A stretch of DNA of 64,000 bases from Rhodoferax sp. (GTDB taxonomy: Bacteria; Pseudomonadota; Gammaproteobacteria; Burkholderiales; Burkholderiaceae_C), in assembly GCA_031418395.1 (NCBI GenBank), contig JANOXL010000242.1, positions 12-64,011 on the forward strand, read 5' to 3'. The notes below the pieces were generated by a model. It had not been told where the DNA came from. It did no database searches and worked only from the letters and a program-made list of their open reading frames with translations. The position numbers and the translations under genes are program-made. Shown here piece after piece: positions 9,451-58,987 of this stretch (positions are counted from its first letter, which is position 1; every line of letters begins with the position of its first letter).

Positions 9451-9689
9451 TTTAAGGAAGCGCGGTTTTATTCATCGGGGTCCATGGCGATTGGGTTGGG
9501 ATGGGCTTCGAAGCTTCAAATTCCACGGAGCAGCGCATCTTTGCATTTGCGAGTTGAAAAGCCCTCAACTTTAGGCCACATCACCGAGGCGTCATTCAAT
9601 TCGGCGTCACACAAGCGCCACAAAACTGACATCGCCCTTTCGCAAAGTCGGATGAAACTTGTCGGCAGTGGTATCAACCGTAGAAAGTT

Positions 9690-11012: not shown

Positions 11013-11087
11013 CCCCGAAAAATAACCCCGCTTAGCGCTAACGGATCGGCATCACTCCATGCCTTGGCAGGCCACCTGCAAACAGGG

Positions 11088-11957
11088 CTAGGCAGCAACC
11101 TCAGCAACAGGGGTCATCGACAGCCCCGCCTGCTCGCGCCCCAGCTCCTTGCGGTATTTGTTCAAATCCTGCACGGTGCTGAACTCCCGCTCCAACAGCA
11201 GACTCAGGTTGTGCAGGATGCGGTCGACCACCTTGGTTTCCCACAACACGTCAAACTTGATCTGGCCATCGAGCCAGTGCTCCAGCCATTCAGGGTCTGG
11301 CAGGCGACTTTGGACGGTGTCACGCGGAAACAAGGCTTTGTTCACATGCAAGTTGGTCGGGTGCAGGGCCTGCGCCGTGCGCCGTGCGCTGGCCATCAAC
11401 ACGCCGACTTTGGCAAAGGCCATCTTGGCCTCAATGCCGTGCAGTCCGATAGCGCGACGCATGTATTTCAGGTAACAACCACCATGGCGGGCTTCGTCCT
11501 GAGACAAGGTGGTGTAAATCTGCTTGATGACAGGCTCAGTGTGCCACTGGCTGGCGCGACGGTACCAATGGTTGAGGCGGATTTCTCCGCAGAAATGCAT
11601 CATCAGGGTTTCCAGCGGTGGCGCGGGGTCAAACTCAAAACGCACTTCATGCAGCTCGGCCTCGGTGGGCACCAGGTCTGGGCGGAATTTTTTGAGGTAT
11701 TCCATCAACACCAGCGAATGTTTTTGCTCCTCAAAAAACCAGACTGACATGAAGGCGCAAAAATCGCTGTCGTGCCGGTTGTCGCGCAGAAACATCTCGG
11801 TCGCCGGAAGCGCCGCCCACTCCGTGATGGCGTTGAGTTTGATGGTCTGGGCATGCTCCTCGGTCAGCAAGGACGCGTCAAAACTCTCCCAAGGAATATC
11901 CTTGGTCATGTCCCAACGGACAGCTTCGAGTTGTTTGAACAGTTCCGGGTAGAGCAC
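11088..11957 (-). CDS. Ferritin-like diiron-carboxylate protein (acyl-ACP-desaturase-like)
   Basis: Two E-x-x-H ligand motifs in helices (FFEEQKH and SQDEARH). 289 aa soluble protein. Confidence 0.6.
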   Translation of the reverse strand: MLYPELFKQLEAVRWDMTKDIPWESFDASLLTEEHAQTIKLNAITEWAALPATEMFLRDNRHDSDFCAFMSVWFFEEQKHSLVLMEYLKKFRPDLVPTEAELHEVRFEFDPAPPLETLMMHFCGEIRLNHWYRRASQWHTEPVIKQIYTTLSQDEARHGGCYLKYMRRAIGLHGIEAKMAFAKVGVLMASARRTAQALHPTNLHVNKALFPRDTVQSRLPDPEWLEHWLDGQIKFDVLWETKVVDRILHNLSLLLEREFSTVQDLNKYRKELGREQAGLSMTPVAEVAA

Positions 11958-19234: not shown

Positions 19235-20008
19235 TTAGAAAGAATCCAATGGCATGAAGGTCTTGATTTCGGCGGTGACGGGATCCAAAAACACCGTCCA
19301 ATACGATTTACGCCCGAGCATGGGCAAGTAAACCATGCTTGGCCCGACGGCGCCAAACGGGGACAATACCTGGTCGATTTCTGCGGCACGATTTGGAAAC
19401 CGCGTCTTGAGCGCAGCGACGGGTGTGGCTTCTTTAAGCACATCGGGGATTGCCAATTCGTAAGGCTGCCAAAGGTCTGCACGGACCGGTAGCGCCAGGC
19501 CACGGAGCGCCGCAAGAGTCGCCTCTGCCTTTTCGTTTGAATCCTTAAACGGCCGAAGCGAGACAGTCGTCGGGCCAAACAGTGGCATGGCCTTGAGGCC
19601 GGGCGCGGCCTCTTTGAGAAGCTCGGAGGGAACGTCGATGGCGTGGGCCACACCAAAACGGGAATATTCAAACACCAAGTGAACCGGTCGTGCTGCAAAG
19701 ACTGTCCACATGCCGTAAGCCAATGCGCCCAGCTGCAAAGCCGCCACGACGATTAAATCAAAACGCAATTTATTCCTGCCTTTGCCCGGATTGAATATGG
19801 CCAATGTGATCAGAGGCCCCAAAATCACATCCACCGACACCAGCAAAACAAATAACTCGCGTCCACCCGAGATTTCGCGGTAGGGGTAGGGATACCAGAC
19901 AAAAAACACTAAGGTCGCTGCCATTGCTGCAACGAGCAGACTTAAGCCAAGATGGATGCCACTGGCCCGAACGCGCGTGGCCCAAAATGCAGATGAGGTC
20001 AATGCCAT
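19235..20008 (-). CDS. Membrane protein, tentatively TfpX/TfpZ-type type IV pilin accessory protein
   Basis: Four N-terminal TM segments plus an approximately 140-aa soluble domain. Family assignment is from memory of FimB/TfpZ-like architecture and the pilin-locus context. Confidence 0.45.
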   Translation of the reverse strand: MALTSSAFWATRVRASGIHLGLSLLVAAMAATLVFFVWYPYPYREISGGRELFVLLVSVDVILGPLITLAIFNPGKGRNKLRFDLIVVAALQLGALAYGMWTVFAARPVHLVFEYSRFGVAHAIDVPSELLKEAAPGLKAMPLFGPTTVSLRPFKDSNEKAEATLAALRGLALPVRADLWQPYELAIPDVLKEATPVAALKTRFPNRAAEIDQVLSPFGAVGPSMVYLPMLGRKSYWTVFLDPVTAEIKTFMPLDSF

Positions 20009-20112
20009 GGTCGTATGATGCAGGGGTTTTATTCGGGTTCAAAAACGATACCGTCAAGCGACGGTAAAGATTGTCACACTGCGCTGTATCAAATTCAATT
20101 TATAGACTTCAA

Positions 20113-20604
20113 ATGAGCGCCCTTACACATTTTGACGCACGAGGCCAAGCCCATATGGTGGACGTTGGTGCCAAAGCCAATACCCATCGGATTGCCATTG
20201 CGCTAGGGTACATTGCCATGCTGCCAGAAACACTGGCCATTATCGAATCTGGCAGCGCCAAAAAGGGCGATGTATTGGGCATTGCGCGTATCGCAGGCAT
20301 TCAAGCTGCCAAGAAGACCAGTGACTTAATTCCGCTTTGCCACCCGTTGGCGCTTACACGGGTCGCTATAGAATTTAAAGCAGCTCACAAAAACCTCACA
20401 GGAGACAACTCCATTATTTGCCAGGCAACAGTGGAAACCAATGGCCCCACGGGAGTGGAGATGGAGGCGCTAACCGCCGTCAGTGTTGCGTTGCTCACTA
20501 TTTACGACATGTGCAAAGCAGTGGATCGCGGAATGATGATTTCAAGCGTCAAACTCCTGGAGAAACACGGCGGCAAGTCAGGTTCTTTTGTGTCTGCGGC
20601 CTAA
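20113..20604 (+). CDS. moaC: Cyclic pyranopterin monophosphate synthase
   Basis: [29 protein letters not shown] and [24 protein letters not shown] are conserved MoaC blocks. Confidence 0.92.
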
Positions 20605-20661
20605 TGGCCGTCACAGTGTTTGACCGCGCACTTAAAACCCAAAAAACTTACCCTTTGCATA

Positions 20662-22206
20662 TCATTTTCCGTAGGCAGCTTGGTAACGAAGCCGGAAGAA
20701 TTTTGCTTCGTCGACCCTTCCCAGCATTTCCGAAGTGGTAATTAGCCTTTCGACCACTCGTGCTTCAGGGGAGAAATGTAACAACGCGTGGGCCTGGGCA
20801 TTGAAATAGGCGGCATTTACGGGCGTCAATTGCGCGGTGGTCAACTCGGCAAACCGAAACTGGTTCTGGAAAAACCAGGTGTTACGTATTTTTTCAAGGG
20901 TGTTCGTTTTGTAGGCTTGAGCCCTTTGAGATGGCGGCAAGTAGATTTGGCTAACCTTGTAATAGTCCCAAGCGACGGCTGCCAAAGCCATCATCAATAC
21001 AATCGCTGAGGCTCGAATCACATGTGTCAATCGCATCCCACCCAGCAGAAGGGTGCTACCGACGCGAGGTTCGCCTGCCATTTTGTTGGGCGCAGAGACC
21101 TTGGTCTCTTGCGATGTCGTGAACAAAATCATGAGACACATCACAGTGGCGATCTGAAATGGTCCATACCAAAGCGGGTACTCGACCAAGCTGTGTAACC
21201 CAATCATCGCCAGGACACCCCACGCAAGCTGACGCTGAGGATGATTCTCGCGCCAGGGATGCAAGCGCTTCAGTACCCACAGAACCCCGCCGCAAAAAAG
21301 AAGTGATACCGGTATTCCAAGCTCCACCGCGAGATGCAGCGGCAAATTGTGCGCATTGTCCAAAATTTCACAAAATCTTGGGCCGTCATATAGCGTTATG
21401 AAGTGTGCGTAGTCCAGTTCACCCCATCCCCAACCAAACCAAGGTTTCAAGAGCACTAAGTGCAGTACGTTTTGCCACAAAACAATACGGCTAGAGCAAT
21501 TGTGCTCAGTGTCGGCCAAACGCCCAAAAATGCCCCCAAACGCCCCGTCTCGACTAACCAACACTGGCAAAAGAACGCTAGCTACCACGTAGGTCAACCA
21601 AGCGGTAGTCACCACTTGCACAACGGAGCGGTCGCGCCAGTTGCGCCAAGCCAGCATCAGGCCGCCGACTAAAAGTAGCTGTACAAGCCCGGTTCGGGAA
21701 GATGACGCCGCGTTGCCTAAGCCGAGTGTCCCGGCTGACGCCAACCCTCCCCAAAACCACATCATTCTCTGTTGATCATCTAAATTGTCGCGAGAAAATT
21801 TCGGGTTAGCCTTTGCCCTTGCCAGCCAAATTATTGCAACCAGGCCGATCATGGTCAGCGTTGCAAATTGATTGCGTTGGCGCAGATTGGCAAAAGCTTC
21901 ACCAATTTGGGTCGTATTGATGAACCCCGCCGCGAGCTTGCTATATCCGAAAAACTGGATTAGAGCGATTCCACAACTGGCAAGTGCAGCCAACCACCAG
22001 GCAGTGGCAAGCGTTTCAACAGCTCTAGTTTTAGTGGATTCCAAGCTTTGAAAGCTGAAACTACACACAAAAAGTAGGCCAGCGAAACACATCCAGCTAA
22101 CCAAAAGGGGCGTAGCAGCCGGAGCAGGGCCGGTCGCAGCAGGATTTAGCCACGGCAGAGTCAGCAATACTAGTGCAGCGCCCGCAATCATTTGGCACCG
22201 ACGCAC
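20662..22206 (-). CDS. O-antigen-ligase/PglL-family polytopic membrane protein (candidate protein O-oligosaccharyltransferase), paralog 2
   Basis: 514 aa, more than 10 TM segments. Wzy_C-like loop (NAHNLPLHLAVELGIP). Soluble C-terminal domain. Adjacent to pilA. Confidence 0.7.
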   Translation of the reverse strand: MRRCQMIAGAALVLLTLPWLNPAATGPAPAATPLLVSWMCFAGLLFVCSFSFQSLESTKTRAVETLATAWWLAALASCGIALIQFFGYSKLAAGFINTTQIGEAFANLRQRNQFATLTMIGLVAIIWLARAKANPKFSRDNLDDQQRMMWFWGGLASAGTLGLGNAASSSRTGLVQLLLVGGLMLAWRNWRDRSVVQVVTTAWLTYVVASVLLPVLVSRDGAFGGIFGRLADTEHNCSSRIVLWQNVLHLVLLKPWFGWGWGELDYAHFITLYDGPRFCEILDNAHNLPLHLAVELGIPVSLLFCGGVLWVLKRLHPWRENHPQRQLAWGVLAMIGLHSLVEYPLWYGPFQIATVMCLMILFTTSQETKVSAPNKMAGEPRVGSTLLLGGMRLTHVIRASAIVLMMALAAVAWDYYKVSQIYLPPSQRAQAYKTNTLEKIRNTWFFQNQFRFAELTTAQLTPVNAAYFNAQAHALLHFSPEARVVERLITTSEMLGRVDEAKFFRLRYQAAYGK

Positions 22207-22236
22207 TTTGCTTCAGTCAACTTTGGGGCAATTGAT

Positions 22237-23931
22237 TCACGGCGCTTTTGCTGGCCATGGCACGATTGCCATCTGCGGACTAGTGATCGCCGCCTTTTGC
22301 CAACGCAGTGCCATAGACCCGCAAAGTTTTTCATTGGTAACCGAGCACATGACCTCAAGCCAGACTGCTGCTTCTTTAGGCTGCCCACTCATCGCCAAAT
22401 TCGCCGCGAGTTTGTAGAACGAAAGGACACTAGGAATTGCAATTACCAAACCGCGCATCCAATTCAACTCTTCTTCTGTTACGTCTTTGCTTGGCCTGTT
22501 CCGGGCCAAGACAATGACATCCCGCAATTGAGTCAAGACGACAACATCAGGCGCGGTTTTTGGATAGTTACTGGGAATTCCCCGGTCTTCAAAGCGCAAA
22601 CCATAGAAGCTATTTTCCGCCTTGAAATAGTCACTGATCGTGACAGTCATTGCCAACCCCGCAGACACCAGAACTGCACCATTGACCCAGCTTTTCACCA
22701 AAAAAGCCGGCCTAAAGCCGAGACTAGTGTTGAGCACGCCCAACAGAAGGCCCGCGGGAAGCAATAAGTGAGCGTAATGCAAGGGAAATTCCAGCATCGA
22801 ATGGACGCCAAGAATCAACATTGCAGCCATTATGGCGAATTGGTCAAACTGAATTGCCAATTTTCCGGCCTGCCAAATCCACCAACCCAAAAATCCAACA
22901 ATCGCCAGCCCAATCGGATAACCATTCCAAAGAATCAAGTCCAGCACCATATTGTGAGACTGCGCAAATATTCCTCCTGCTGGTGGGTAACTCGCAACCA
23001 ACATAAAGTGGGCTTGCGAAATTTGCCCCCAGCCAAACCCGAACCAGGGCTGACGTGACGCGGCCTCCAGAAACATGATCCAAGCTGTTGTTCGTGCAGG
23101 GTCGTTTAGTCCTCTAAATTGAGAGGGAAGGTCGTCCGGGAAGAACAAAATCAGGTCGATATACGGTATTGTGATTGAGACGATCACGAAGTAAGCGGCT
23201 AATCCCAACGCTACTTTCAGGAAATGCGGGCTGTACAACTTATTCCGCAGCAAAATTAGCCCTGTCGCCAACAAGAATATATTGAGCCAAGCCGTTCGTG
23301 ACCCCGTCAAGGCGACTCCAAACAAGACAATGGCAGCCAGCGCGGCTGCCACCCATGCCGTAAGATTTTGACGAAAATGTGCCCATGCAGTCCCGATAAC
23401 ACCGAGCAACAAGAGTGACCCAAGTACGTTCGGTTGGGTAAGATTTGCATAATACCGATTTGGTAAAGTGCTGCTCAATATCCAAATGGTGTCGGATCTA
23501 AACCCTAACCACTGGAAGATCTGTAAACCCGTTGACACAACTGCAGCACAAGTAAATGCCATAAAAACAAAATCTGCACACTGGCCTGGAGAATCAAGTT
23601 CCCATTTGGCGCCGACCTGAATGGCAAGTGCAAACCCGAGCAAATACAGGCTGTGCATCCAGACCATACCAAACTGAGTTGATTGTCCGCACAAAAACTG
23701 CACTATTGGAATGGCGCTCAGGCCAAAAATCAGTAAGGCCAACCAATGCAGAGGATGCGGCGCAGTTTGCCTCAGTAGGACTCGTGCCGAAACCAGCAAC
23801 AGAACACATGCCACCCAAGCTTCTTTATGAAAAGACAACCAAGGTGGGGAATTGTTGGGCAATAACCAGCCCAACGACAAGATCACAGCCCCCAGCATTA
23901 GCCACAACGGTGTAAATACCTTGATCTGCAT
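22237..23931 (-). CDS. O-antigen-ligase/PglL-family polytopic membrane protein (candidate pilin O-glycosyltransferase), paralog 1
   Basis: 564 aa. N-terminal LGWLLPNNSPPWLSFHKE and loop AQSHNMVLDLILWNGYPIG are typical of the PglL/PilO class. Immediately downstream of pilA. Confidence 0.7.
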   Translation of the reverse strand: MQIKVFTPLWLMLGAVILSLGWLLPNNSPPWLSFHKEAWVACVLLLVSARVLLRQTAPHPLHWLALLIFGLSAIPIVQFLCGQSTQFGMVWMHSLYLLGFALAIQVGAKWELDSPGQCADFVFMAFTCAAVVSTGLQIFQWLGFRSDTIWILSSTLPNRYYANLTQPNVLGSLLLLGVIGTAWAHFRQNLTAWVAAALAAIVLFGVALTGSRTAWLNIFLLATGLILLRNKLYSPHFLKVALGLAAYFVIVSITIPYIDLILFFPDDLPSQFRGLNDPARTTAWIMFLEAASRQPWFGFGWGQISQAHFMLVASYPPAGGIFAQSHNMVLDLILWNGYPIGLAIVGFLGWWIWQAGKLAIQFDQFAIMAAMLILGVHSMLEFPLHYAHLLLPAGLLLGVLNTSLGFRPAFLVKSWVNGAVLVSAGLAMTVTISDYFKAENSFYGLRFEDRGIPSNYPKTAPDVVVLTQLRDVIVLARNRPSKDVTEEELNWMRGLVIAIPSVLSFYKLAANLAMSGQPKEAAVWLEVMCSVTNEKLCGSMALRWQKAAITSPQMAIVPWPAKAP

Positions 23932-23957
23932 TCTTTCAACCTCTTTGACTTCAACTC

Positions 23958-23986
23958 AAAAAAAAAGGGAGCCAAGCTCCCTTTTT
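23958..23986 (-). terminator. Intrinsic terminator after pilA (bidirectional form)
   Basis: A9-GGGAGC-caa-GCTCCC-T5. On the minus strand the stem is followed by a T9 run. Confidence 0.8.
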
Positions 23987-24002
23987 CGTCATGGTGAATT
24001 GC

Positions 24003-24413
24003 TTATTTGCAGGAAGAAGGCGCCCATTTGGGGTTAACCGAACCCACACATGTCCAACCCGAAATACCGTTTCCAGAAATCGTGGGGGTCAAGGTAACAA
24101 TGAAGTCATTGGCAGCAAGAATAAGTCCGTTAACAGTGACAATTCCAGTCGTCGCGCCCACAGTCAAAGCTGTTGCACGTGAAGTCGGAACAAAACCGGT
24201 CGCACAAGTGTCAAGCGAATTTGCGCCATTTGTCGACACCGCCTCAGTCACACAAGTGCGCGCACCGCTGGCGGCCAAAATTACCTCAGAGGCCTTGGCG
24301 CGGTTGGTGTAATCCTGATAGGCTGGCAAAGCAACTGCAGCCAAAATACCAATGATCGCCACAACGATCATCAACTCGATAAGGGTGAAACCCTTTTGCA
24401 TAGAACGCTTCAT
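24003..24413 (-). CDS. pilA: Type IV major pilin
   Basis: Prepilin leader MKRSMQKG / [28 protein letters not shown]-terminal Cys pair. Confidence 0.93.
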
Positions 24414-24456
24414 TAAAAACTCCTTGGTGAAAAAAGAAAGACTGACAACTTAATAT

Positions 24457-24472
24457 AGCAATCACCGTGCCA
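24457..24472 (-). promoter_or_regulatory. Sigma-54 (-24/-12) promoter of pilA
   Basis: Minus strand reads TGGCACggtgaTTGCT, a perfect TGGCAC-N5-TTGCW, about 45 nt upstream of the pilA ATG. A TTGCAAATTGCAA repeat lies further upstream at about 24538-24552. Confidence 0.7.
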
Positions 24473-24584
24473 GCCGAAAATCAACGGTTTTTGCGCAAAT
24501 GGTCTTCGCCAGTCACCAATTTTTTCTACTTTTATTGCAAATTGCAAAAATCGATCTCTGAAAAGTCAATCGCCGACATTTTTG

Positions 24585-27005
24585 TCACTTAATACAAACT
24601 TGTCTGACCATTTTGAGGTCCGTCAGCCCCATCATGATCTTCTCCATCCCGTCCATTTTCAGCGTCCGCATACCGCCTTCAACAGCTGCCACAAAAATTT
24701 CCGCTACGCGTGCGCGCTCCTGGATGAGTTTCTTGACATCGTCATCTGCAATTAACAATTCGTGCAAACCCACACGCCCTTTGTAACCTGTCTTGCCGCA
24801 CTTGTCACAACCGACCGAGCGGTAAAACTTGAGTTGTCCGTCGTTGCCGTACAACTCGACCCAGCTGTCGATCAGTTTTTGCACTTCTCCGTCGTAATCC
24901 GCCTTCCAAGCCTTGGAGTGGCGCAGCTCTTCTGCATATTCTGAAACAAACTTTTTAAGCTCTGAACCGTTCGGGGCGTAGGATTCTTTGCAATCACAGA
25001 GCTTTTTGGCCAAGCGTTGCGCCAAAATGCCCAAAAGTGCATCTGCGAAGTTGAACGGATCCATACCCATGTCCAAAAGACGGGTAATGGACTCAGGGGC
25101 AGAGTTAGTGTGTAGCGTGGAGAAAACCAGGTGGCCCGTCAGTGATGCCTCAACACCCATCGATACGGTTTCCTTGTCACGCGACTCACCTACCATGATG
25201 ATGTCTGGGTCAGCCCGAAGAAAAGCGCGCATAACCAACGCGAAGTCAATTCCCGCTTTTCTGTTGATCTGAACCTGGCGCAGTCCCTTTTGCGTGATCT
25301 CTACCGGGTCTTCAGCAGTCCAGATCTTGGTGTCGGGCTTATTCAAATGCTTGAGGATGGAGTGCAGTGTGGTGGTTTTACCGGAGCCAGTCGGCCCGCA
25401 TACATAAAACAACCCGTAAGGTTTTTCAACCGTTCTGATCACCCGATCTTTGTTGTGGGGCGTGAGACCCAGCTTTTCCAGCGGGATCGGCTCGCCAGCA
25501 GCCAGGATACGCATGACAACATCTTCTACGCCCCCTGCCGAAGGGATCGTTGCCACCCGCAATTCAATATCAAGCGGGCCGTATTTTTTGAACTTGATTT
25601 TGCCGTCTTGTGGCTTACGGCGCTCGGAAATATCGAGATCACACATGATCTTCAGGCGGGTCACCATCGCCTGACGGAAATGCGCTGGCACTTCAATATA
25701 CGGCAGAAGGCTGCCATCGATACGGAATCGGATGCCCGTCTTGAACTTGCCAGGCATCGGCTCAATGTGAATGTCAGAAACCTTTTGGTTGTAGGCGTCA
25801 ATGATGACTTTATTGACAAATTTGACAAGCTCATTGTCTGCGGCCGCTGACTCCAGAGAGTCTTCACCGCTGCCGTCGTCGATCGGGCCGCCGTCCATAT
25901 CTGCCAGAAGGTCGTCGATCGAACCACCTTCAGCGCCGGCGCCGAAAATTTGATCGAGGGTTTCCTGGAACTCGGTCTGAGTTGTGACACGGTAACTGAA
26001 TTTATGGAATTTTGAAAACACCTGTGGCACGATGCGCGAGCCCCGAACCGCCTCGGGGTCAACACACATGACTATCAAGCCTTCTGGCGAGTCTTCAAGT
26101 GGAAACCAGCCTTGTCCCTGGACGAAATCGCGTTTCAGCGCGCCATGAATATGCTCTGATCGAATTCGACCCGCATTAAACGGCTCGTACGGCACACCAA
26201 AGAACTTTGCCAAAGATGGTCCGATTTGGGCCGGTTTGACTTTAAATTGCGACATCAAGACGTGTTCAACACTATGGCCTTCGGCCCGGGCGTCTTCGAC
26301 ACATTGCTGCAGCTCGGCTTTTGAAATGACGCCATCTGCAATCAAGCCATCGAATTTCGTCGCGACTTTGCGCTGGCTATCTTCGGCCTTTCGCACTCGC
26401 TGGCGGATGGCCGTGCCAAGTGTTTTACAAAGCTGGGAAACACCTTCAACTTCCAATTCGCTAAAAGGCTGGTTGCTCTTGTTATTGATGACCTGGAGCA
26501 CGCCATGCAAGGTTTCACCTTCCAGGACAGGTGCCACCAGCATTTCGCGGGTCCGATATCCAGAGCGTTTGTCAACTTCTTTGAGAAATGTCAATGCCGG
26601 ATGGATTTGTTTGAGCGCCTCTTCGTCGTACACGTCCGCCAAATTAATGAGGGAGCGACTAAAAGCACAATATCCGGCCAAACTCTGAGGTGAAATCGGC
26701 AGTTTCAGGTCGCGGCTGCTATTGAGGCCGGTCTTGATCTTGGAAATAATGGCAGTTCCGTCATCGTTGACCGCATACAAGGTCAATCGATCTGCATTGA
26801 ACAGTTTGCAAATATCCTGGCTTGCGTCCAGCATGATCTGGTCAAGATTGTCGGTCTCGTGGATTCGCGCCGTTACCTGTTGAAGCTGGCGGTAAAACAA
26901 GGCTTCGAAAGTTGTTCCCCGCTTTTCAGCGGGCAGCTTTTGGGAGTCAACAAAGGCCTGATCCCTCGGTTTGCCCACGACAGGCGGTTTCAACACAGCA
27001 CTCAT
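24585..27005 (-). CDS. GspE/PilB-family secretion/pilus ATPase with N-terminal GAF domain
   Basis: 806 aa. The first ~200 aa look GAF-like (DICKLFNADRLTLYAV...GVLQVINNK). A T2SSE_N-like domain follows, then Walker A GPTGSGKTT and the tetracysteine CDKCGKTGYKGR motif of PilB/GspE ATPases. Confidence 0.85.
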   Translation of the reverse strand: MSAVLKPPVVGKPRDQAFVDSQKLPAEKRGTTFEALFYRQLQQVTARIHETDNLDQIMLDASQDICKLFNADRLTLYAVNDDGTAIISKIKTGLNSSRDLKLPISPQSLAGYCAFSRSLINLADVYDEEALKQIHPALTFLKEVDKRSGYRTREMLVAPVLEGETLHGVLQVINNKSNQPFSELEVEGVSQLCKTLGTAIRQRVRKAEDSQRKVATKFDGLIADGVISKAELQQCVEDARAEGHSVEHVLMSQFKVKPAQIGPSLAKFFGVPYEPFNAGRIRSEHIHGALKRDFVQGQGWFPLEDSPEGLIVMCVDPEAVRGSRIVPQVFSKFHKFSYRVTTQTEFQETLDQIFGAGAEGGSIDDLLADMDGGPIDDGSGEDSLESAAADNELVKFVNKVIIDAYNQKVSDIHIEPMPGKFKTGIRFRIDGSLLPYIEVPAHFRQAMVTRLKIMCDLDISERRKPQDGKIKFKKYGPLDIELRVATIPSAGGVEDVVMRILAAGEPIPLEKLGLTPHNKDRVIRTVEKPYGLFYVCGPTGSGKTTTLHSILKHLNKPDTKIWTAEDPVEITQKGLRQVQINRKAGIDFALVMRAFLRADPDIIMVGESRDKETVSMGVEASLTGHLVFSTLHTNSAPESITRLLDMGMDPFNFADALLGILAQRLAKKLCDCKESYAPNGSELKKFVSEYAEELRHSKAWKADYDGEVQKLIDSWVELYGNDGQLKFYRSVGCDKCGKTGYKGRVGLHELLIADDDVKKLIQERARVAEIFVAAVEGGMRTLKMDGMEKIMMGLTDLKMVRQVCIK

Positions 27006-27793
27006 AAGTCGAACTCCTGACCCGCCCGCAACCAGCGGATGTCATGACTCACATTAGGCCCGTTCACCGCAGTTTCATCAAACTTCTGAATTTCAGCCAT
27101 GATGAGGGCCGTCTCAGCTGGCTTGGTATGCGTAATATAGATGGGGTACTTTTTCTCACGGTGGATATTGTCCAACTCGTCGGCCAAAACGCCCGGTGAA
27201 AGATGCAGACTCAATTTGGCGAGGTCTTTTTCGCGGTTGCTAAACGCGGTTTCAATCACCAGCATGGCGACATTCAGCTCATTGACACGCTTCCAAAACG
27301 CTGGGTTACGTTCAGTATCGCCCGTGAATACCCAACACCCGGTGCCAGCTGTTACAGCATATCCTACTGCGGGAACGGTGTGAATCGCGGGCAAAACTTC
27401 GATCAACTTACCCTGCAACTGAAGGGCTTGACCAGCCTGAATTTCATGAAATGAAATAAAAGGTGCTTCTGGCGTCGGAATTCGACTGAAGTCAGGCCAA
27501 ATAACGTCGTTGAAAATATGCGCTCTTAATGCTGCAATAGTCCCTGCAAGCGCATAAATTCGAAGAGGTGCTGTCCGCCGGGCAGCAACAGCATCCACCA
27601 TTAACGGCAACGCAGCTACGTGATCAAGATGGGAATGCGTCAAAAAGACTGTGTCGATCCCCCGCATTTCATCAAGTGTCAAATCACCTACACCCGTGCC
27701 GGCATCAATCAAAACATCGCCATCAATTAAAAAAGACGTGGTTCGGCAATCCTTGGCGATGGCACCAGAGCAGCCCAACACTCGTACTTTCAT
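27002..27793 (-). CDS. Class-II 3',5'-cyclic-nucleotide phosphodiesterase (MBL fold)
   Basis: HSHLDHVAALP matches the class-II PDE signature HxHLDH. The stop overlaps the ATPase start (ATGA). Confidence 0.8.
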   Translation of the reverse strand: MKVRVLGCSGAIAKDCRTTSFLIDGDVLIDAGTGVGDLTLDEMRGIDTVFLTHSHLDHVAALPLMVDAVAARRTAPLRIYALAGTIAALRAHIFNDVIWPDFSRIPTPEAPFISFHEIQAGQALQLQGKLIEVLPAIHTVPAVGYAVTAGTGCWVFTGDTERNPAFWKRVNELNVAMLVIETAFSNREKDLAKLSLHLSPGVLADELDNIHREKKYPIYITHTKPAETALIMAEIQKFDETAVNGPNVSHDIRWLRAGQEFDL

Positions 27794-27802
27794 GACGTGC
27801 CT

Positions 27803-30055
27803 TTATTTGGTTTCAAAGTTAGTCGCTCCGTCCCACTCTGGATCGAATGGAAGCATCCTCATGGAGGCTACTCGTTCGGAATACAGTTGGTAAAGGTATT
27901 TTTTTGCATTTGCGCGGGTCAAATTGATTAAAAGTACATCCGATTGGTCCCAGTCCTGAGTTCGATAGGCTTTCAAGAATGTGCCCCAAGTCTTCAACTC
28001 TGAGGTGACACCGTCACCAAGCTCGCCAGCCTGCCCCACAGGGTAGTAGATTGCTACGGCTTGGTCTTTCCCCTTAACCCGGACTTTGTCCAGCTCCTGC
28101 CAGGCAAATTCTGGGGCCAGTTTACGTGTGGACTCACTTACAACTATATCGACACCATAGGACTTTGACAATCCTTCCAGTCTTGAACCCAAGTTAACCG
28201 CATCACCAATCACCGTATAGCTGCGACGGATGTTGGAGCCCATATCTCCAACACACATGCTGCCAGTGTTGAGACCAATCCCGATGCCAATCTCCGGGAT
28301 GCCCTTGGCACGATGTTCCCGATTGATGTCGTGTATGGCATTCGCCATCTCTATGGCGGCCTTGATGGCAAGCTGGGCATGTTCAGCGGTTTCCACCGGT
28401 GCGCCCCAAAATGCCATGACACAGTCGCCCATATATTTGTCGATCGTGCCGCGATTGGCTCGAATATGTCCGGTCAAGCGGCTGAAAACATCATTAAGCA
28501 GCGCTTGAAGCTGGACGGGCTCCATTTTTTCCGACATTTTTGTAAACCCCCGCATGTCGCAAAACATGACGGTCAACTCTTTATTGCTGGCCTTCATGGT
28601 GTAGCTGTCGGGGTCTTTTACCATCTCGTCAACCAACTCGGGAGGAACGTAAGTACCAAACAAATTAGCCAACTCACGTTTTGAGCGGCTTTCTACGAAA
28701 TAGCCGTAGCTCATGTTCAACGCAAAAGCCGCCGTTGCCATCGCCAGCGCACCGGCAAGGGGCAAAACCAAACCAAAGGATTGGTACATCCAGAAGTTGA
28801 GCACAAAAAGCAAGGCCAATACACCCGTGCTGAGCATCACCGCCCGGGAGGCACTCAGTATCGGCAGTGCAATGGCCAAGGCTAGCCCCGACACAACCAG
28901 CATGACAACGTCATATCCGACCGCGTAATCAGGTTTGACAAGAACCTTGCCATCGAGCAGCCCCGAAATCACGTTGGCATGGGTTTCCACTCCCGGATAG
29001 GTCTCTCCCACCGGCGTCACCCGTAAATCCACAAGCCCAGGTGCCGTAGTGCCCAGTAACACAATTTTGTTTTTAAGCGTTCCTGCCGGAATGCGTTTGG
29101 CCAACACGTCGGCCGCTGAAAGGTACTTGAAGGCTCCACCCGTTGGACCACCCGCTCCCCGAAACGGAACTAATGCGGAGACTCTGTCGTCTACCGGTAT
29201 GGCGTACGTCTTCTTTTCGTCAAGCCTCAACAAAATGCTTTCCAGCCCTTGGTAGTTTTTGTTGAGGAACCGGTCGCGCGGGAACCCTGGCGAGATCGTC
29301 GGCATGCCAATCAGCATCCGAAACATGGCCAGGGGTAAAGACTCGTAGTACTGCCCTTTGTATTCTCCGATCAAAGGCAAAGACCGGACAACACCATCAG
29401 TTTCAGTGATCGAGTTGAAAAACCCAGCCATCGGGGCGGCTTTGGCAATTTGGTCAATATTTGACCCAAACCCGTTCCATGAAGTAAAGCGGATGGGTTT
29501 GCCTTGTAAAGCTTCTCGTGGCATGACGGGTGCCGGTAGGGTGCCCGAGGATCGGCCGTCTCGGTCACTTGTCAGGTAATACCCTAGAACAACGGGTCGA
29601 TTTTCAAGCGCCTTGGCAAAAGCCGCATCGTAATCAAGCTCCGTTTGCAAAGTTTGCACGCGCTCGACAAATCCGGCCTGCCCTTTCAACTCATTTTTTG
29701 CCAAATCGTTTAGGCGCTTCAGACCTGAGCTGTCATCAGCTTCGGCAAACACAACGTCAAAGCCAAGGAGCGCTATTTTTTGGGAGTCGAACAACTCCCG
29801 CGTGAGTTCAGCCAGCCGATTGCGCCCCCATGGCCAGCGCCCGACCTCGGCCAGACTTTTTTCATCGATATCCACGATGACGATGCGGTCGTCCAATGTC
29901 CTGGGCATTGTCGCCCGTAGCCGTGCATCGTAAATGATGTCATCCAAACGCTGGATAAATCCAAAATTGATAACACCCGTCGAATTCAGCAACGCAATCA
30001 GTAATGGCAACAACGTTACCAATATCCGGGGCCAATGCTTTAGCAAAGATGCCAT
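27803..30055 (-). CDS. CHASE2-domain class-III adenylate/guanylate cyclase
   Basis: N-terminal TM plus a large periplasmic CHASE2-type region (VIVDIDEKSL...GRWPW), three TM segments, and a C-terminal cyclase domain (MFCDMRGFT, IDKYMGD, VNLGSRLE). Confidence 0.88.
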   Translation of the reverse strand: MASLLKHWPRILVTLLPLLIALLNSTGVINFGFIQRLDDIIYDARLRATMPRTLDDRIVIVDIDEKSLAEVGRWPWGRNRLAELTRELFDSQKIALLGFDVVFAEADDSSGLKRLNDLAKNELKGQAGFVERVQTLQTELDYDAAFAKALENRPVVLGYYLTSDRDGRSSGTLPAPVMPREALQGKPIRFTSWNGFGSNIDQIAKAAPMAGFFNSITETDGVVRSLPLIGEYKGQYYESLPLAMFRMLIGMPTISPGFPRDRFLNKNYQGLESILLRLDEKKTYAIPVDDRVSALVPFRGAGGPTGGAFKYLSAADVLAKRIPAGTLKNKIVLLGTTAPGLVDLRVTPVGETYPGVETHANVISGLLDGKVLVKPDYAVGYDVVMLVVSGLALAIALPILSASRAVMLSTGVLALLFVLNFWMYQSFGLVLPLAGALAMATAAFALNMSYGYFVESRSKRELANLFGTYVPPELVDEMVKDPDSYTMKASNKELTVMFCDMRGFTKMSEKMEPVQLQALLNDVFSRLTGHIRANRGTIDKYMGDCVMAFWGAPVETAEHAQLAIKAAIEMANAIHDINREHRAKGIPEIGIGIGLNTGSMCVGDMGSNIRRSYTVIGDAVNLGSRLEGLSKSYGVDIVVSESTRKLAPEFAWQELDKVRVKGKDQAVAIYYPVGQAGELGDGVTSELKTWGTFLKAYRTQDWDQSDVLLINLTRANAKKYLYQLYSERVASMRMLPFDPEWDGATNFETK

Positions 30056-30110
30056 GAAATTCCCGAAGTTAAGTAACCTGGTGGCCCCGACAAGCTGCCG
30101 GCTCGGGTGG

Positions 30111-30785
30111 TCAGTTCAATATGAATTGCATTTGAGTGCCCGCGAGCTCGATCAAATCGCCATTCTTGAGGGCGACGGGATCAACTCCGATCGGCGCCCC
30201 ATTCAACGAAGGGTTCCCGGCACCTTCAACATGATGAACGACAAAGCCGTGGCTGCGTTTTGTAATCGCCGCGACTGCAACACCCGGTTTGCCAATGGTT
30301 GTCACGACTTTAGTCAATGGCACTTCCCGACCTGAAGCCGCGCCTGACAGCACCTTAATAGCCGCTCGGGCCGAAGAAGCACCAAAGCTTGAGTCCGGGC
30401 CTCTCGCCGCCGCCGGCGCTGCCGACTGATGGGCCGCAGCCAAGGCTGCTGCCTGGCTCGGGCGCACCATCTGGGTCTTCTCAAAACCTTGGTCTGCGCT
30501 TTCGTTGACAAATTTGATTTTGTATTTGCCAACTTCAACGACATCTCCGTTTTGCAACAGTTGCTTCTTCACCGCCTTGCCATTGACATAACTTCCGTTG
30601 GTGCTGTTAAGGTCTTCAAGATGCACCTCGTTGCCCGCCATTTGCAAAACTGCGTGCTCCCCGCTGACGGCAAGGTTGTCAATGACGATGTCGTTATACG
30701 GACGCCGACCCAGTGACGTCCGATCTTTCGTCAACTGGACTTCCTTGATCACAACCCCGTCTATCGATACGATCATTTTCGGCAT
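30111..30785 (-). CDS. Protein with two FHA domains
   Basis: N-terminal FHA (SLGRRPYNDIVIDNLAVSGEHAVL...NSTNGSYVNG) and a second degenerate FHA-like C-terminal module, joined by an Ala/Ser-rich linker. Confidence 0.8.
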   Translation of the reverse strand: MPKMIVSIDGVVIKEVQLTKDRTSLGRRPYNDIVIDNLAVSGEHAVLQMAGNEVHLEDLNSTNGSYVNGKAVKKQLLQNGDVVEVGKYKIKFVNESADQGFEKTQMVRPSQAAALAAAHQSAAPAAARGPDSSFGASSARAAIKVLSGAASGREVPLTKVVTTIGKPGVAVAAITKRSHGFVVHHVEGAGNPSLNGAPIGVDPVALKNGDLIELAGTQMQFILN

Positions 30786-30833
30786 GACCGACTCCTGTTC
30801 CTGAAATTTGTAATTCGAAAAATTAAACTGAAA

Positions 30834-31619
30834 CTATTTTCTCAACAATCGGGAAATCAAACCCCGTTTTTCGCTGCCTGCCGCTGCGTGCGCCAACAAC
30901 ACCGAGATGTTATCGCGCCCACCGTGTTCATTCGCCAGTGAAACGAGCTGTTCGGTTTTTTGATCCATCGATTGCTCACCCTCGAGAATACCCGCAATTT
31001 CCGCGTCTTCGACCATGTCTGACAGTCCGTCTGAGCACATCAGGTAGATATCACCAACCTCAACATCATATTCGTTGAGCTCAAGCAACACCGTATCGTC
31101 AACGCCAAGCGCTCGAGTGACCAAGTTTTTGTAGGAGGACGTGGCGGCTTGCTCAACAGTCAAAAGTCCAGCGTCGATCTGCTCTTGCAAGAGTGAATGA
31201 TCTCGCGTGATCTGCAAAAACTCGCTGCCCCGAAGGCGGTAACAACGGGAATCGCCAATGTGTCCGAGCATCAGCTTATCACCCTGAAAAACACCCACAA
31301 CCAGCGTTGTTCCCATGCCTGAATATTGCGCATTGGAGCTTGCCGCGTTGTAAATGGAGCGGTTTGCATTTTCTACGCAAATCTCAAGTGCCCGCCGGAT
31401 TTCCTTGGTCTTGGCATGTTTGCCGGCTTCTGTCAACCACCGTGTCATTTCAGACTTAATGAAAGCAGTCGCCATACCGCTGGCGATTTCGCCAGCGTTG
31501 TAACCGCCCATGCCGTCGGCCAAAACGGCCAAGTGCGTCGAGTCGTCATGGGCAACCGAGTCTTCGTTGTTTTCCCTGGCGCGCCCAGGATCAGTTTTCG
31601 TGAAAAACGTATAGATCAT
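30834..31619 (-). CDS. PP2C-family Ser/Thr phosphatase
   Basis: RENNEDS, LADGMGG and MCSDGLSD metal-binding motifs. Confidence 0.9.
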   Translation of the reverse strand: MIYTFFTKTDPGRARENNEDSVAHDDSTHLAVLADGMGGYNAGEIASGMATAFIKSEMTRWLTEAGKHAKTKEIRRALEICVENANRSIYNAASSNAQYSGMGTTLVVGVFQGDKLMLGHIGDSRCYRLRGSEFLQITRDHSLLQEQIDAGLLTVEQAATSSYKNLVTRALGVDDTVLLELNEYDVEVGDIYLMCSDGLSDMVEDAEIAGILEGEQSMDQKTEQLVSLANEHGGRDNISVLLAHAAAGSEKRGLISRLLRK

Positions 31620-31667
31620 TGTTTGTTTTGCTTTTTCACCAATTCTTAAGCGATCAGTGTTTCCAAC

Positions 31668-34466
31668 TTAAATTTCAATGTCGCTAGACCCGGGCCGCGG
31701 GGGAGGCGTAGGCGTAGGCGTATGTACTATGGTTTTTTCAAACCCGACTTGCGGCTGCGAATCACCCGTCGCAGTGCGCGTGTGAACCGCTGTTTTTTCA
31801 AAGTCAGGCACTGACGAAGCTTTGTTGCCTGAGTTAAAGGCCACAGTTTTTTCGTTCGCCATCGACGTCGTCGGCAACGGGGAGGGGCGGGTCGCCGTGG
31901 TCGATTTGGCGAAGTCAGCGCCGCCTGGAATATTTGCCATCACTGCCCGCAGGTCCGACGCGAACTGGTCGCCGTCTTGATAACGTGTTTCAGGGCGTTT
32001 GCTCAATGACAAAGCCACAACATTCGCCAACTCCTCCGGCAAGTCAGCTCGAACAATCCGAATATCTGAGGCCTCTTCGTTGGCAATTTTGTACATCAGC
32101 TCAGCCATGGAGTCGCCGCGGAATGGCAATACCCCGGCAAGCATCTGGTACAACATCACGCCAAGTGAATAAAGATCCGAGCGCCCATCGACCTTTTTGC
32201 CCGCCAATTGCTCGGGCGACATGAAACTGGGCGTGCCCAATACCAGGCCCGTTTTGGTTTTGCTGGAATCCGTGATGCGTGCAATGCCGAAGTCAGTCAC
32301 CTTGACAGTATCGGAATCCAACTCGTACATGATGTTCGCGGGCTTGATGTCGCGATGTACTACGTTCTGCTTGTGGGCATAGGCAAGTGCTTCGGCCACT
32401 CTGGCAACGATCGACAAAACCCGGGGAACCGCCAACAAGTGTCCGTCTTTGCAAGCGTCTACCAGATCTTTGCCTTTAAGGAACTCCATGGCAATGTAGG
32501 CCAGGTCATGCTCCTCACCCGCGTCAAAAATCGTGACGATGTTCTGGTGCTGTAGCCTACCCGCTGTCTCGGCCTCGCGGAAGAAGCGCTCCCGCGCATC
32601 GACCAGCTCTTCACCGTCAAACTCCTGGCTCAAGGCCATGGTTTTTATGGCCACGACACGCCCGATTTTGGGGTCCTTGCCCAGATAAACCACACCCATG
32701 GCACCTTTGCCCAATTCTTTTTCGACCTGATAGCGGCCCAACATCGGCTTTTCAACAGCGCCACCATCCAGCAGCATGGTGCCGCCCGGGTGCGCGCCAC
32801 CACCACCCAGGATCACCGTCTCCGACAGGTTTTTCGCACGCGCCAGCTTGGTTTTGATATCTTTGTAATTCGGGTTAAAAGCCGCCATGTGTTCATACAC
32901 AGATTCGGCTTTGTTGAATTGGCGCTTGCGTTCAAAGTCCAGGGCCAGGCTGTACAAATTCCCCATGACGGCCTCTGCCATCGGCACACGGCGGAACCGG
33001 TCAAACGCCGCATCCAATTGGCCCTGGCCCTGCAACGCCAGCCCCATCATGCGGCTGGTTTCGGCAGATTCTTCGTCTGACTTGATCTTCCCCGCCTCCG
33101 TCATCAAGAAGCGCTTGGTGGTCAAGGCCAAATGCCCCAAAACCAGCAGGGCCGCCGGGAACACCAGTTTTAACCAAGTCGCCGCGCCCGCCAACAAGCC
33201 AAACTCGGCCCCCAACAAAAGCACAAACATGGTCAGGGTCACGATAGCGGCTGCGCTCGCCGACAAACGTGGCAAAGCCACAATGATGTAAGCCGCCACG
33301 ATCAAAAATGCCGCAAGCATGGCCCACACACCCCAACCGGGTTGGACGATGAAATGCTCACTCAAAATGCTGGAAGTGATGTGGGCAATTGTTTCGGCAG
33401 GCGACAGGCCTGGGTTGCCTGGCACCGGGAAGATGGTGCCTACCCCCGCCGCCGTAGCGCCAATCACGACAATTTTGTCGGCGTATTTGCTGGCCGGAAT
33501 TTTGCCGTTGAGCACGTCAAAAAATGAGTCCGTTGCAAACGCGGGCCGCCCATCCTTGCCTTTATAAAACTGCGGCAGCATCATGGCGGACTCATCGGTT
33601 TTAACGCGCAGTTTGCCGATTTGAACCGATTCCCCGGCATTGAGCTTGACATCGCCGGGCGCCAAATTCAGGCTCTTGATTGAGGCCAACAAGGCCATCG
33701 ACGGTATTGCTTTGCCATAATAGTTCACCAGCATCGGCTCTTGGCGCACTGCACCATCCACATCCTGAAACTGGTTTAAATGCCCAATTCCTGCCGCAGC
33801 GGTGCCAATACCTTCAATGGGTTGCTGCCCTTTGATGGCCGGTAAAGAGAATCCTCCGTTTTCGTCGATGGCGCTCTTCAGCACGTAAGCGGGCAGCGGG
33901 TTGTCGGGTCGTCCTTGGGGCTCACCAATCGAAAATACCGACGGAATCAGCACGTTGCCGGCTTTTTTCATGCTGTCGGCCAAGATGGCATCCGAATCCA
34001 GCGCCAACTCCGCCTCGCTGATAATTTTTTCCAGCCGATCGTTCGTAGAAGCCTGCGCGGCACTTTCATTGGACGGCGGCGCGCCGGCCGGCTTGGTCAA
34101 GACGCGGCGCATCTGGCGGATGAAGTCCAGCCCCCTATCTACCTGCGGCTCAAAGAAGAAAACGGTGTGAACGATGGTTTTGGTTTTGGCCGCAGCCAGT
34201 TGGTCGATCAACTTGGCGTGGACGTCCCGCGGCCAGGGCCAGCGGCCAATATTGGCAATACTCTGATCGTCAATGGCGATCACCGCGATGCGGTCTGACG
34301 GCTGGCGGTTGCTGCTGGTGCTGGCAAAGTCATAAAACCGTCGCTCCAACGTGCCAAAAAAGTCTGTGGTGTAGTTGAACAGTACCACGGCCAGCACCAC
34401 CAACAGGCCGACAAACCAGTCGGCCCGCCAAAACGGTCCTTTGCCCGAAAATGATATTTTTGCCAC
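31668..34466 (-). CDS. CHASE2-domain Ser/Thr protein kinase (sensor N-terminal, TPR-like linker, Hanks kinase C-terminal, Thr-rich tail)
   Basis: CHASE2-type N-terminus (IAVIAIDDQSIANIGRWPWPR), TM segments, and kinase motifs VAIK, HRDIKPANI, DFGIA and GTPSFMSPEQ. Confidence 0.88.
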   Translation of the reverse strand: MAKISFSGKGPFWRADWFVGLLVVLAVVLFNYTTDFFGTLERRFYDFASTSSNRQPSDRIAVIAIDDQSIANIGRWPWPRDVHAKLIDQLAAAKTKTIVHTVFFFEPQVDRGLDFIRQMRRVLTKPAGAPPSNESAAQASTNDRLEKIISEAELALDSDAILADSMKKAGNVLIPSVFSIGEPQGRPDNPLPAYVLKSAIDENGGFSLPAIKGQQPIEGIGTAAAGIGHLNQFQDVDGAVRQEPMLVNYYGKAIPSMALLASIKSLNLAPGDVKLNAGESVQIGKLRVKTDESAMMLPQFYKGKDGRPAFATDSFFDVLNGKIPASKYADKIVVIGATAAGVGTIFPVPGNPGLSPAETIAHITSSILSEHFIVQPGWGVWAMLAAFLIVAAYIIVALPRLSASAAAIVTLTMFVLLLGAEFGLLAGAATWLKLVFPAALLVLGHLALTTKRFLMTEAGKIKSDEESAETSRMMGLALQGQGQLDAAFDRFRRVPMAEAVMGNLYSLALDFERKRQFNKAESVYEHMAAFNPNYKDIKTKLARAKNLSETVILGGGGAHPGGTMLLDGGAVEKPMLGRYQVEKELGKGAMGVVYLGKDPKIGRVVAIKTMALSQEFDGEELVDARERFFREAETAGRLQHQNIVTIFDAGEEHDLAYIAMEFLKGKDLVDACKDGHLLAVPRVLSIVARVAEALAYAHKQNVVHRDIKPANIMYELDSDTVKVTDFGIARITDSSKTKTGLVLGTPSFMSPEQLAGKKVDGRSDLYSLGVMLYQMLAGVLPFRGDSMAELMYKIANEEASDIRIVRADLPEELANVVALSLSKRPETRYQDGDQFASDLRAVMANIPGGADFAKSTTATRPSPLPTTSMANEKTVAFNSGNKASSVPDFEKTAVHTRTATGDSQPQVGFEKTIVHTPTPTPPPRPGSSDIEI

Positions 34467-34665
34467 GTCTTGCCTATTCTGTAATCACCGCCCTACCCGG
34501 AGTCGGCAAAAAACACCCGTCGGCCAAGCCAACGGGCGCACCGCAGACTTGCGACGTTAGCAGACCACGCTCCAACCGACAAGGGACTTGTGCGCATCCG
34601 CTTGTCGTTTTTTTGCCATTGGGCTGGAAGCAATAGGCTGAAACGCCGCCTTGGTGCGTGTTCGC

Positions 34666-57190: not shown

Positions 57191-57208
57191 GTCGAACTTA
57201 GATGGGAC

Positions 57209-58456: not shown

Positions 58457-58458
58457 GC

Positions 58459-58914: not shown

Positions 58915-58926
58915 GGTGGGCCTTTC

Positions 58927-58987
58927 ATTCCATTTCTAAATCATTCGTGCAGGTCGTTGGGCTACACAAACGATTTAGAAATGGAAT
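58927..58987. repeat. Long inverted repeat (16-bp perfect arms, extendable to about 23 bp) just upstream of the PAS gene
   Basis: ATTCCATTTCTAAATC (58927-58942) and GATTTAGAAATGGAAT (58972-58987). On the minus strand the 3' arm abuts the GAAAGG Shine-Dalgarno sequence of the PAS ORF. Confidence 0.7.

Follow-up and report, generated by a model that had tools for sequence, protein, structure and literature searches.

The motors of type IV pili and type II secretion systems can be switched by the second messenger cyclic di-GMP (c-di-GMP), through an MshEN domain or through FimX-PilZ. Cyclic AMP (cAMP) is also tied to pili. In the circuit of Pseudomonas aeruginosa, cAMP acts transcriptionally through Vfr, the phosphodiesterase (PDE) is the class III enzyme CpdA, and the cyclase carries a MASE2 sensor. 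To our knowledge, the action of cAMP on pili is known only as transcriptional, via Vfr. Threonine phosphorylation provides post-translational control in the H1 type VI secretion system (T6SS), where the genes of PpkA (a membrane-bound Hanks-type kinase whose sensor is extracytoplasmic), the PP2C phosphatase PppA, and the FHA adaptor Fha1 lie beside those of the machine that they control. Here we analyze a 64-kb stretch of DNA from Rhodoferax sp. (64,000 nucleotides of contig JANOXL010000242.1; hereafter, the window) in which one operon joins a Hanks-type kinase, a PP2C phosphatase, an FHA protein, a class III cyclase, and a class II PDE to a PilB/GspE-type ATPase that carries a GAF domain.

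We propose, with moderate confidence, that this operon is a control cassette found at a pilus locus in several betaproteobacterial lineages, in which a PilB-family motor with a decayed MshEN motif would have gained a cAMP-type GAF domain and come under the control of cAMP. A preliminary description of this DNA, made from the sequence and its open reading frames (ORFs), had proposed that a locally made and locally degraded cyclic nucleotide gates the ATPase through its GAF domain, with a kinase, phosphatase, and FHA layer on top. Taken as a whole, that interpretation is partly supported by the results below. Its authors were aware of no characterized example of such wiring, and our literature search likewise found nothing on a GAF-fused PilB/GspE ATPase or on an operon of this composition.

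A GAF-fused ATPase and its cyclic-nucleotide enzymes

Six ORFs lie on the minus strand from position 34466 down to 24585, with the kinase gene first and the ATPase gene last (Table 1), and Pfam calls agree with the six genes as they had been read from the sequence. From the kinase gene to the PDE gene, neighbors are separated by 48, 48, 55, and 9 nt, which corrects the earlier figures of 10 to 56 nt; the 4-nt ATGA overlap reported between the PDE and ATPase genes stands. At the 5' end, the terminator at 34513-34539, between the TerC gene and the kinase gene, marks the operon boundary. To compare relatives, we used a pattern scan with one genome per species, which found 380 loci encoding a relative, and analyzed the best 80. 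All were from the Comamonadaceae (Rhodoferax, Curvibacter, Ramlibacter, Hylemonella, and Caenimonas). By its homologs, the source of the window itself falls among Rhodoferax-like Comamonadaceae. Window proteins were mapped onto these 80 loci by tblastn, and 59 of the loci were anchored by TerC; contexts beyond the Comamonadaceae come from single-locus look-ups. Both Comamonadaceae and Rhodocyclaceae show this gene order again. Of 67 loci, 60 retain the ATGA overlap, in keeping with the suggestion that the class II PDE is translationally coupled to the ATPase.

The N terminus of the ATPase had been taken for a GAF domain, and each approach that we used returned the same answer. Pfam places the domain at residues 53 to 200 (41.6 bits against a cut-off of 22.4). 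An AlphaFold2 (AF2) model of the N terminus, built from a 58-sequence alignment, had a pLDDT of 93.2 for residues 30 to 357 and matched GAF structures in Foldseek with a probability of 1.00, among them the GAF of an HD-GYP enzyme, cAMP-bound Lcd1, PDE2/5/6/10, and CyaB2. By sequence, the top match in the PDB was the cAMP-binding GAF-B domain of CyaB2 (E = 7e-20), followed by the HD-GYP GAF and PDE2A GAF-B. In CyaB2 GAF-B, Arg291 (at N1) and Thr293 (at N6/N7) contact the adenine, Ile308 stacks, and Asp356 contributes (PMC4411481). These four residues (R291, T293, I308, and D356) align to R73, T75, I90, and D145 of the ATPase (NADRSTL versus NADRLTL). Across the 80 Comamonadaceae orthologs, R73, T75, and D145 are 100% conserved, and position 90 is I or V, with V in 50%. 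Among 15 diverse members of the wider family, D145 does not vary, at least 90% have R73, T75 is mostly retained, and position 90 is hydrophobic or aromatic; these members carry an N-(K/R)-x5-F-x3-(D/E) version of the NKFDE motif. The residue equivalent to CyaB2 N359 is S148 in the window GAF, at a position occupied by Ser or Thr. Together, the pattern fits the cyclic nucleotide (cNMP)-type pocket suggested earlier and is consistent with cAMP binding, as a prediction from residue similarity and not as proof. Ahead of the GAF domain, a motif of the form F..SQKLPxEKRGxTFEALFY (residues 18 to 38; 26892-26954) is present in all Comamonadaceae orthologs. We considered T32 in this N-terminal motif as a phosphosite and dropped it, having found no correlation with the presence of the kinase.

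Between the GAF and T2SSE domains, both of which had been recognized, lies an MshEN-like domain that had been missed (Pfam, residues 269 to 357; 26.4 bits against 23.1). The c-di-GMP receptor motif of MshEN domains consists of two tandem 24-residue copies of RLGxx(L/V/I)(L/V/I)xxG(L/V/I)(L/V/I)xxxxLxxxLxxQ (PMC5013675). Strict and relaxed versions of this motif, searched as a pattern that was run without an MshE/PilF positive control, had no match in the window ATPase, in the 15 diverse family members, or in 479 collected proteins. In the register of PilF, copy 1 has TKF in place of RLG and A239 in place of Q, and copy 2 has SVE, F254, and F268. With the c-di-GMP motif absent and a GAF domain present, the family appears to have exchanged a c-di-GMP input for a GAF input.

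The motor domain itself is well preserved (T2SSE, residues 389 to 800; 369 bits in Pfam). It retains GPTGSGKTT, DPDIIMVGESRD, and GHLVFSTLHTN, so that Walker A, Walker B, and the His box are intact as expected for the T2SSE superfamily, and the zinc-site cysteines C670, C672, C733, and C736 are invariant across the family. By sequence, it matches PilF, PilB, and GspE in the PDB (approximately 1e-100); PilB and PilF are its best solved relatives, with a match that reaches into the MshEN region. The first cysteine pair (C670-C672; 24990-24998) is spaced as CxC in the window ATPase and in Giesbergeria P0128 and as CxxC in the other aligned members. A search with the GAF-MshEN N terminus returned 197 clusters (50% identity) below 1e-30, and a profile search with N termini from outside the Comamonadaceae returned chiefly fragments and stand-alone GAF-MshEN proteins rather than the full-length proteins of the query. 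The stand-alone proteins have 364 to 393 aa and no ATPase domain, and their genes adjoin or overlap a Ser/Thr kinase gene (8997-11182 in locus L087; 1234-3463 in locus L093); one cluster of them holds 118 member sequences.

The two enzymes that would make and degrade the ligand also retain their characteristic residues. Across 49 orthologs, the cyclase motifs FCDMRGFT, IDKYMGD, and YTVIGDAVNLGSRLE show at least 95% conservation, as do the metal-binding Asp pair, the Asn and Arg, and the specificity pair formed by the K of IDKYMGD and the T of YTVIGD, which had been read as favoring ATP as the substrate. In the PDB, every top relative of the cyclase catalytic domain is an adenylate cyclase, P. 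aeruginosa CyaB (3r5g; 2.3e-31) among them. By these sequence criteria, the protein is a predicted K/T class III adenylate cyclase. The PDE matches PDEase_II with 47.6 bits against 23.7, a match limited to profile positions 82 to 145, carries the motif THSHLDH, and has yeast PDE1 as its best PDB match (4ojv; 7.3e-9), which makes it class II-like with a cyclic nucleotide as its predicted substrate. The enzymes of the operon look active, with the specificities predicted for them. The CHASE2 domains of the cyclase and the kinase share only 28% identity and are old paralogs rather than products of a recent duplication.

The kinase, the phosphatase, and the FHA protein

The kinase retains GxGxxG, VAIK, HRD, DFG, and SPE, and the phosphatase passes the NCBIfam cut-off for Stp1/IreP (NF033484; 250.5 bits against 230). 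The third protein had been described as a double-FHA protein, which holds for one of its domains. Its first FHA domain is canonical and retains LGRR, SGEH, and STNG with their Arg, Ser, His, and Asn. The C-terminal half is strongly conserved and falls below the Pfam FHA threshold (E = 0.16); an hhalign comparison of the two halves gave a probability of 86.7% (E = 4e-6), and the phospho-Thr-binding R/S/H loop is deleted in the C-terminal half. The second domain is therefore degenerate and lies outside the definition of an FHA domain.

A short motif, typically FEKTx(V/M), is shared by the kinase and the FHA protein. Two copies are found in the fast-evolving C-terminal tail of the window kinase, and one is found in the linker of the FHA protein. 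Among relatives, 45 of 57 distinct kinase tails contain FEKT-type motifs, 89 copies in total, compared to a mean of 0.57 and a maximum of 3 in 500 shuffles. Of 72 FHA proteins, 62 also have the motif, at one constant place in the linker. Where a locus has its own kinase, the FHA protein retains the motif in 40 of 45 cases, compared to 8 of 13 where it has none, a co-occurrence that is only suggestive because the loci are phylogenetically related. We infer that the FEKT Thr residues are candidate phospho-acceptors and FHA docking sites. The kinase tails vary strongly in length and sequence, yet most end in -D(I/V/L)EI (SDIEI, PDIEI, or TDIEI; SDIEI in the window, at 31671-31685), which may be a docking motif.

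Variation among relatives and surroundings of the operon

In relatives, the locus is syntenic, running from TerC through the operon and pilA to PglL-like genes, and in all those examined it occupies a fixed housekeeping position (on the TerC, sucCD, and recA side) rather than a mobile island. PP2C, FHA, and ATPase genes are found in all 59 anchored Comamonadaceae loci, and the five genes upstream of the ATPase are all intact in 31 of them. The remaining loci lack the cyclase (6/59), the cyclase and the PDE (6/59), the kinase and the cyclase (3/59), or all three (8/59), or they carry truncated remnants of the cyclase and/or the kinase (5/59; L049, L070, L078, L083, and L062). Every locus that has the cyclase also has the PDE. 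Since the truncated remnants lie between intact neighbors, the differences among loci reflect losses that are ongoing.

Beyond the Comamonadaceae, a Rhodocyclaceae metagenome-assembled genome has the order kinase, PP2C, FHA, CHASE2 cyclase, PDE, cNMP_binding+Rhodanese protein, and GAF ATPase. The cNMP_binding+Rhodanese gene sits between the PDE and ATPase genes at 5737-6807 of locus L092, where it overlaps the ATPase start, and similarly at 8623-9699 of locus L085, on a frameshifted contig. Pseudoduganella lutea has only a PDE gene overlapping the ATPase gene, with the kinase set absent. The kinase set is also absent from another lineage, in which the PDE and the ATPase are followed by a GAF-HD-GYP protein, pilins, and PglL. 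The GAF-HD-GYP gene directly follows that of the GAF ATPase in locus L086 (12259-13902, ahead of two pilin genes) and in locus L089 (11992-13635), which hints at crosstalk between cAMP and c-di-GMP at the locus.

Downstream of the ATPase, pilA (Pfam N_methyl and Pilin) and its own sigma-54 promoter had both been recognized, and both are borne out. The promoter element is a perfect TGGCAC-N5-TTGCT. At the same place, 52 of 54 relatives have TGGCAY-N5-YTGC, and the strict sigma-54 pattern was matched in 4 of the 54. The PglL-like genes that follow, which are syntenic in relatives, probably serve O-glycosylation of the pilin. Of the whole locus, the downstream pilin and glycosylation genes vary the most among relatives. 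The G+C content is approximately 0.50 across 20000-28000, which covers both PglL-like genes, pilA, and the genes of the ATPase and the PDE, versus 0.56 to 0.63 elsewhere in the window.

The remaining annotated ORFs of the window are housekeeping genes, and no further pilus-machine gene is among the annotated ones. On the plus strand, 46315-49293 encodes a DNA topoisomerase I with a fused C-terminal SWIB/MDM2 domain (Pfam Topoisom_bac, Toprim_Crpt, and SWIB). On the minus strand, 52656-62276 looks like an oxalate/formate catabolism cluster, with a formate-dehydrogenase-like pair (molybdopterin and Nuo51-type subunits) beside a gene resembling those of formyl-CoA transferases (CoA_transf_3) and one for a TPP enzyme resembling oxalyl-CoA decarboxylase.

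Table 1. Genes, domains, and regulatory elements of the operon and its flanks (positions in the window)
Feature	Position	Strand	Evidence
Intrinsic terminator of TerC gene	34513-34539	-	12-bp stem, 8 GC pairs, T run
CHASE2 Hanks-type Ser/Thr kinase, 932 aa, GTG start	31668-34466	-	Pfam CHASE2 1.3e-50, Pkinase 3.5e-54
Kinase, CHASE2 domain	~33294-34397		
Kinase, catalytic domain	~31980-32732		
Kinase tail (ends in -SDIEI), FEKT motifs	31785-31802, 31725-31742		
PP2C Ser/Thr phosphatase, Stp1/IreP type, 261 aa	30834-31619	-	Pfam PP2C_2, NCBIfam NF033484
FHA adaptor protein, 224 aa	30111-30785	-	Pfam FHA 5.6e-22
FHA protein, canonical FHA domain	30528-30719		
FHA protein, linker FEKT motif	30468-30485		
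FHA protein, degenerate FHA-like C-terminal domain	~30114-30362		
CHASE2 class III adenylate cyclase (predicted), 750 aa	27803-30055	-	Pfam CHASE2 3.1e-52, Guanylate_cyc 3.3e-26
Cyclase, CHASE2 domain	~28919-29995		
Cyclase, catalytic domain	~28058-28588		
Class II cyclic-nucleotide PDE (predicted), metallo-beta-lactamase fold, 263 aa	27002-27793	-	Pfam Lactamase_B_2, PDEase_II
GAF + MshEN-like + PilB/GspE-type ATPase, 806 aa	24585-27005	-	Pfam, PDB matches, AF2/Foldseek
ATPase, GAF domain	26406-26849		Pfam
ATPase, MshEN-like region	~25935-26360		Pfam
ATPase, T2SSE domain	24606-25841		Pfam
Sigma-54 type -24/-12 element TGGCACGGTGATTGCT upstream of pilA	24457-24472	-	TGGCAC-N5-TTGCT
pilA, encoding the major type IVa pilin, 136 aa	24003-24413	-	Pfam N_methyl, Pilin
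Terminator 3' of pilA	23961-23987		
Two PglL/O-antigen-ligase-like genes	22237-23931, 20662-22206	-	Pfam Wzy_C, Wzy_C_2, PglL_A

Proposed mechanism, alternatives, and known systems

In the mechanism that we propose, the membrane-bound CHASE2 cyclase would make cAMP upon an extracytoplasmic cue. Binding of cAMP at the GAF domain would alter, whether upward or downward, how active the ATPase hexamer is or how it assembles, and the translationally coupled class II PDE would reset the signal near the motor. In a second layer, the CHASE2 kinase would phosphorylate FEKT-type Thr residues of its own tail and of the FHA linker; the FHA protein would read these marks and act on the ATPase, and PP2C would reverse them. 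The most probable client of the motor is the type IVa pilus built from the adjacent pilin, which is separately transcribed from a sigma-54 promoter and probably glycosylated. A bolder generalization is that cAMP, not c-di-GMP, is the direct allosteric gate of the whole GAF-MshEN-T2SSE family (at least 197 clusters at 50% identity), and that in betaproteobacteria two CHASE2 receptors, one acting through cAMP and the other through FHA-read phospho-Thr on FEKT, converge to form a two-input, post-translational coincidence gate of pilus extension. This we regard as tentative and would not be surprised to see fail.

Several observations weigh against cAMP gating of the ATPase. The operon had been called a self-contained module, a description that the relatives contradict: 23 of the 59 anchored loci have no trace of a cyclase and 4 more have only remnants, leaving 27 of 59 without an intact one; the PDE is absent from 14 loci and the kinase from 11. 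Loci without a local cyclase have the same 100% conserved GAF pocket, so that either another part of the genome supplies the ligand there or the ligand is something other than cAMP. In the Desulfobacterota, the GAF-ATPases are orphans near which cNMP enzymes were not seen. The NKFDE motif of the window GAF is only partly canonical (N174, K176, F181, E185, and V186), and the Foldseek matches include PtsP and phytochrome GAF domains; with cNMP-binding and other GAF domains mixed among them, the ligand is not given by the fold alone. As for the second layer, no phospho-acceptor was identified on the ATPase, where T32 was the candidate examined. The points on the GAF domain and on the missing enzymes, as well as the separate CAP-type cNMP-binding protein of the Rhodocyclaceae operon, would be expected if the GAF domain bound another small molecule or served only for dimerization or as a scaffold. 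The cyclase and PDE would then act through CRP-like regulators or the cNMP_binding+Rhodanese protein, and any effect on the pilus would be indirect. We see this as a minority possibility that deserves to be taken seriously. It has to contend with the retention of the adenine-contacting Arg and Thr and of the Asp of CyaB2, invariant in the 80 orthologs, and with the fact that the closest sequence relatives are cNMP-binding GAF domains. Moreover, the conserved coupling of the PDE to the ATPase, which recurs in other families, is hard to explain unless the ATPase is the cNMP target.

The identity of the machine is likewise a matter of probability. The ATPase scores below the equivalog cut-offs of both PilB (TIGR02538; 461.8 versus 675.65) and GspE (TIGR02533; 424.4 versus 630.25), which sets it apart as a distinct subfamily of the PilB/GspE superfamily. 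In line with the preliminary description, pilC, pilD, and pilMNOPQ were not found, nor was pilT, among the annotated ORFs of the window, which are a subset of all its ORFs; pilC, pilD, and pilMNOPQ were also not among the called genes of the tabulated loci of relatives. A separate pilBCD cluster is usual in Burkholderiales. Ramlibacter has been reported to have three PilB paralogs and one type IV pilus machinery (PMC3164672), so the window ATPase may be accessory rather than the main motor. It could then belong to another fiber or pseudopilus, for secretion or DNA uptake, or be a regulatory, non-motor subunit, with the main PilB encoded elsewhere together with pilC and pilD. We consider this rather unlikely, given that, in 45 of 59 relatives with sufficient flanking sequence, the major pilin gene is the next one downstream of the ATPase gene, that Walker A, Walker B, the His box, and the zinc-binding cysteines are intact, and that PilB and PilF are the best solved relatives across a match extending beyond the motor domain. 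It is very unlikely that the operon is instead an anti-phage or envelope-stress system of the Pycsar or CBASS kind, built from a cyclase, an Apyc1-like PDE, and a Ser/Thr kinase, with pili involved as phage receptors. PADLOC profiles for PycC match the cyclase domain (104 bits), those for PD-T4-6 match the kinase, and the PDE orthologs are annotated as Anti-Pycsar_Apyc1 in Pfam (PF23023). The PADLOC matches, however, are generic similarity at the family level. The K/T pair points to ATP and not to pyrimidine substrates, a Pycsar-type effector is absent, and the fixed housekeeping position is not that of a mobile island.

If cAMP gating of the motor is true, a pilus ATPase that reads cAMP and has its own cyclase and PDE would give pilus dynamics a second-messenger input that is both fast and local. 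CHASE2, a poorly understood sensor, would gain a concrete output, and the kinase, PP2C, and FHA layer would bring T6SS-style control by threonine phosphorylation to pili. The series of natural losses (loci with the full upstream set of five and loci missing the cyclase, the PDE, or the kinase) is a ready comparative experiment, and the FEKT motif and the R73/T75/D145 pocket are precise targets for mutation.

All parts of the operon are of known kinds, and second-messenger gating of such motors is already known for c-di-GMP. Compared to Vibrio cholerae MshE, PilB, and Thermus thermophilus PilF, the window ATPase belongs to the same superfamily, has an N-terminal MshEN-type domain, and would follow the same logic, in which the motor's N-terminal domain reads a nucleotide second messenger (PMC5013675). 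In contrast to them, it lacks the two RLGxx...Q motifs and has an added GAF domain with cAMP-type contacts. The Pil-Chp/CyaB/CpdA/Vfr circuit of P. aeruginosa resembles the locus in that cAMP is tied to pilus biogenesis, the catalytic domain is closely related to that of CyaB, and a dedicated PDE is present for resetting the signal; here, however, the ATPase carries the predicted receptor, the PDE belongs to class II and has a metallo-beta-lactamase fold, the sensor is CHASE2, and all are encoded in one operon.

The kinase, PP2C, and FHA set resembles that of the H1 T6SS, by analogy only, in being encoded beside its presumed target machine. It differs in that its FHA protein scores far under the TagH/VI_FHA cut-off (38.9 versus 120.25), in its CHASE2 sensor, and in its presumed target, a PilB-type ATPase or pilus, and no T6SS genes were found among the annotated window ORFs, which are a subset of the total. 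The GAF domain has the fold of the GAF domains of CyaB2, PDE2A, PDE5/6, and PDE10A, which are its best sequence matches, and it has the equivalents of Arg291, Thr293, Ile308, and Asp356 and an NK...F...(D/E) pattern, whereas it occurs singly and not in tandem and is joined to a secretion ATPase instead of a cyclase or PDE. Finally, the FHA protein resembles GarA and OdhI, which are also small FHA proteins with a conserved Thr motif in a flexible region adjoining their own FHA domain. OdhI is the best NCBIfam match of the FHA domain, yet with a score of 60 against a cut-off of 200, and in the window protein the motif lies behind the FHA domain instead of ahead of it, a further, degenerate FHA-like domain is present, and the genomic context is different.

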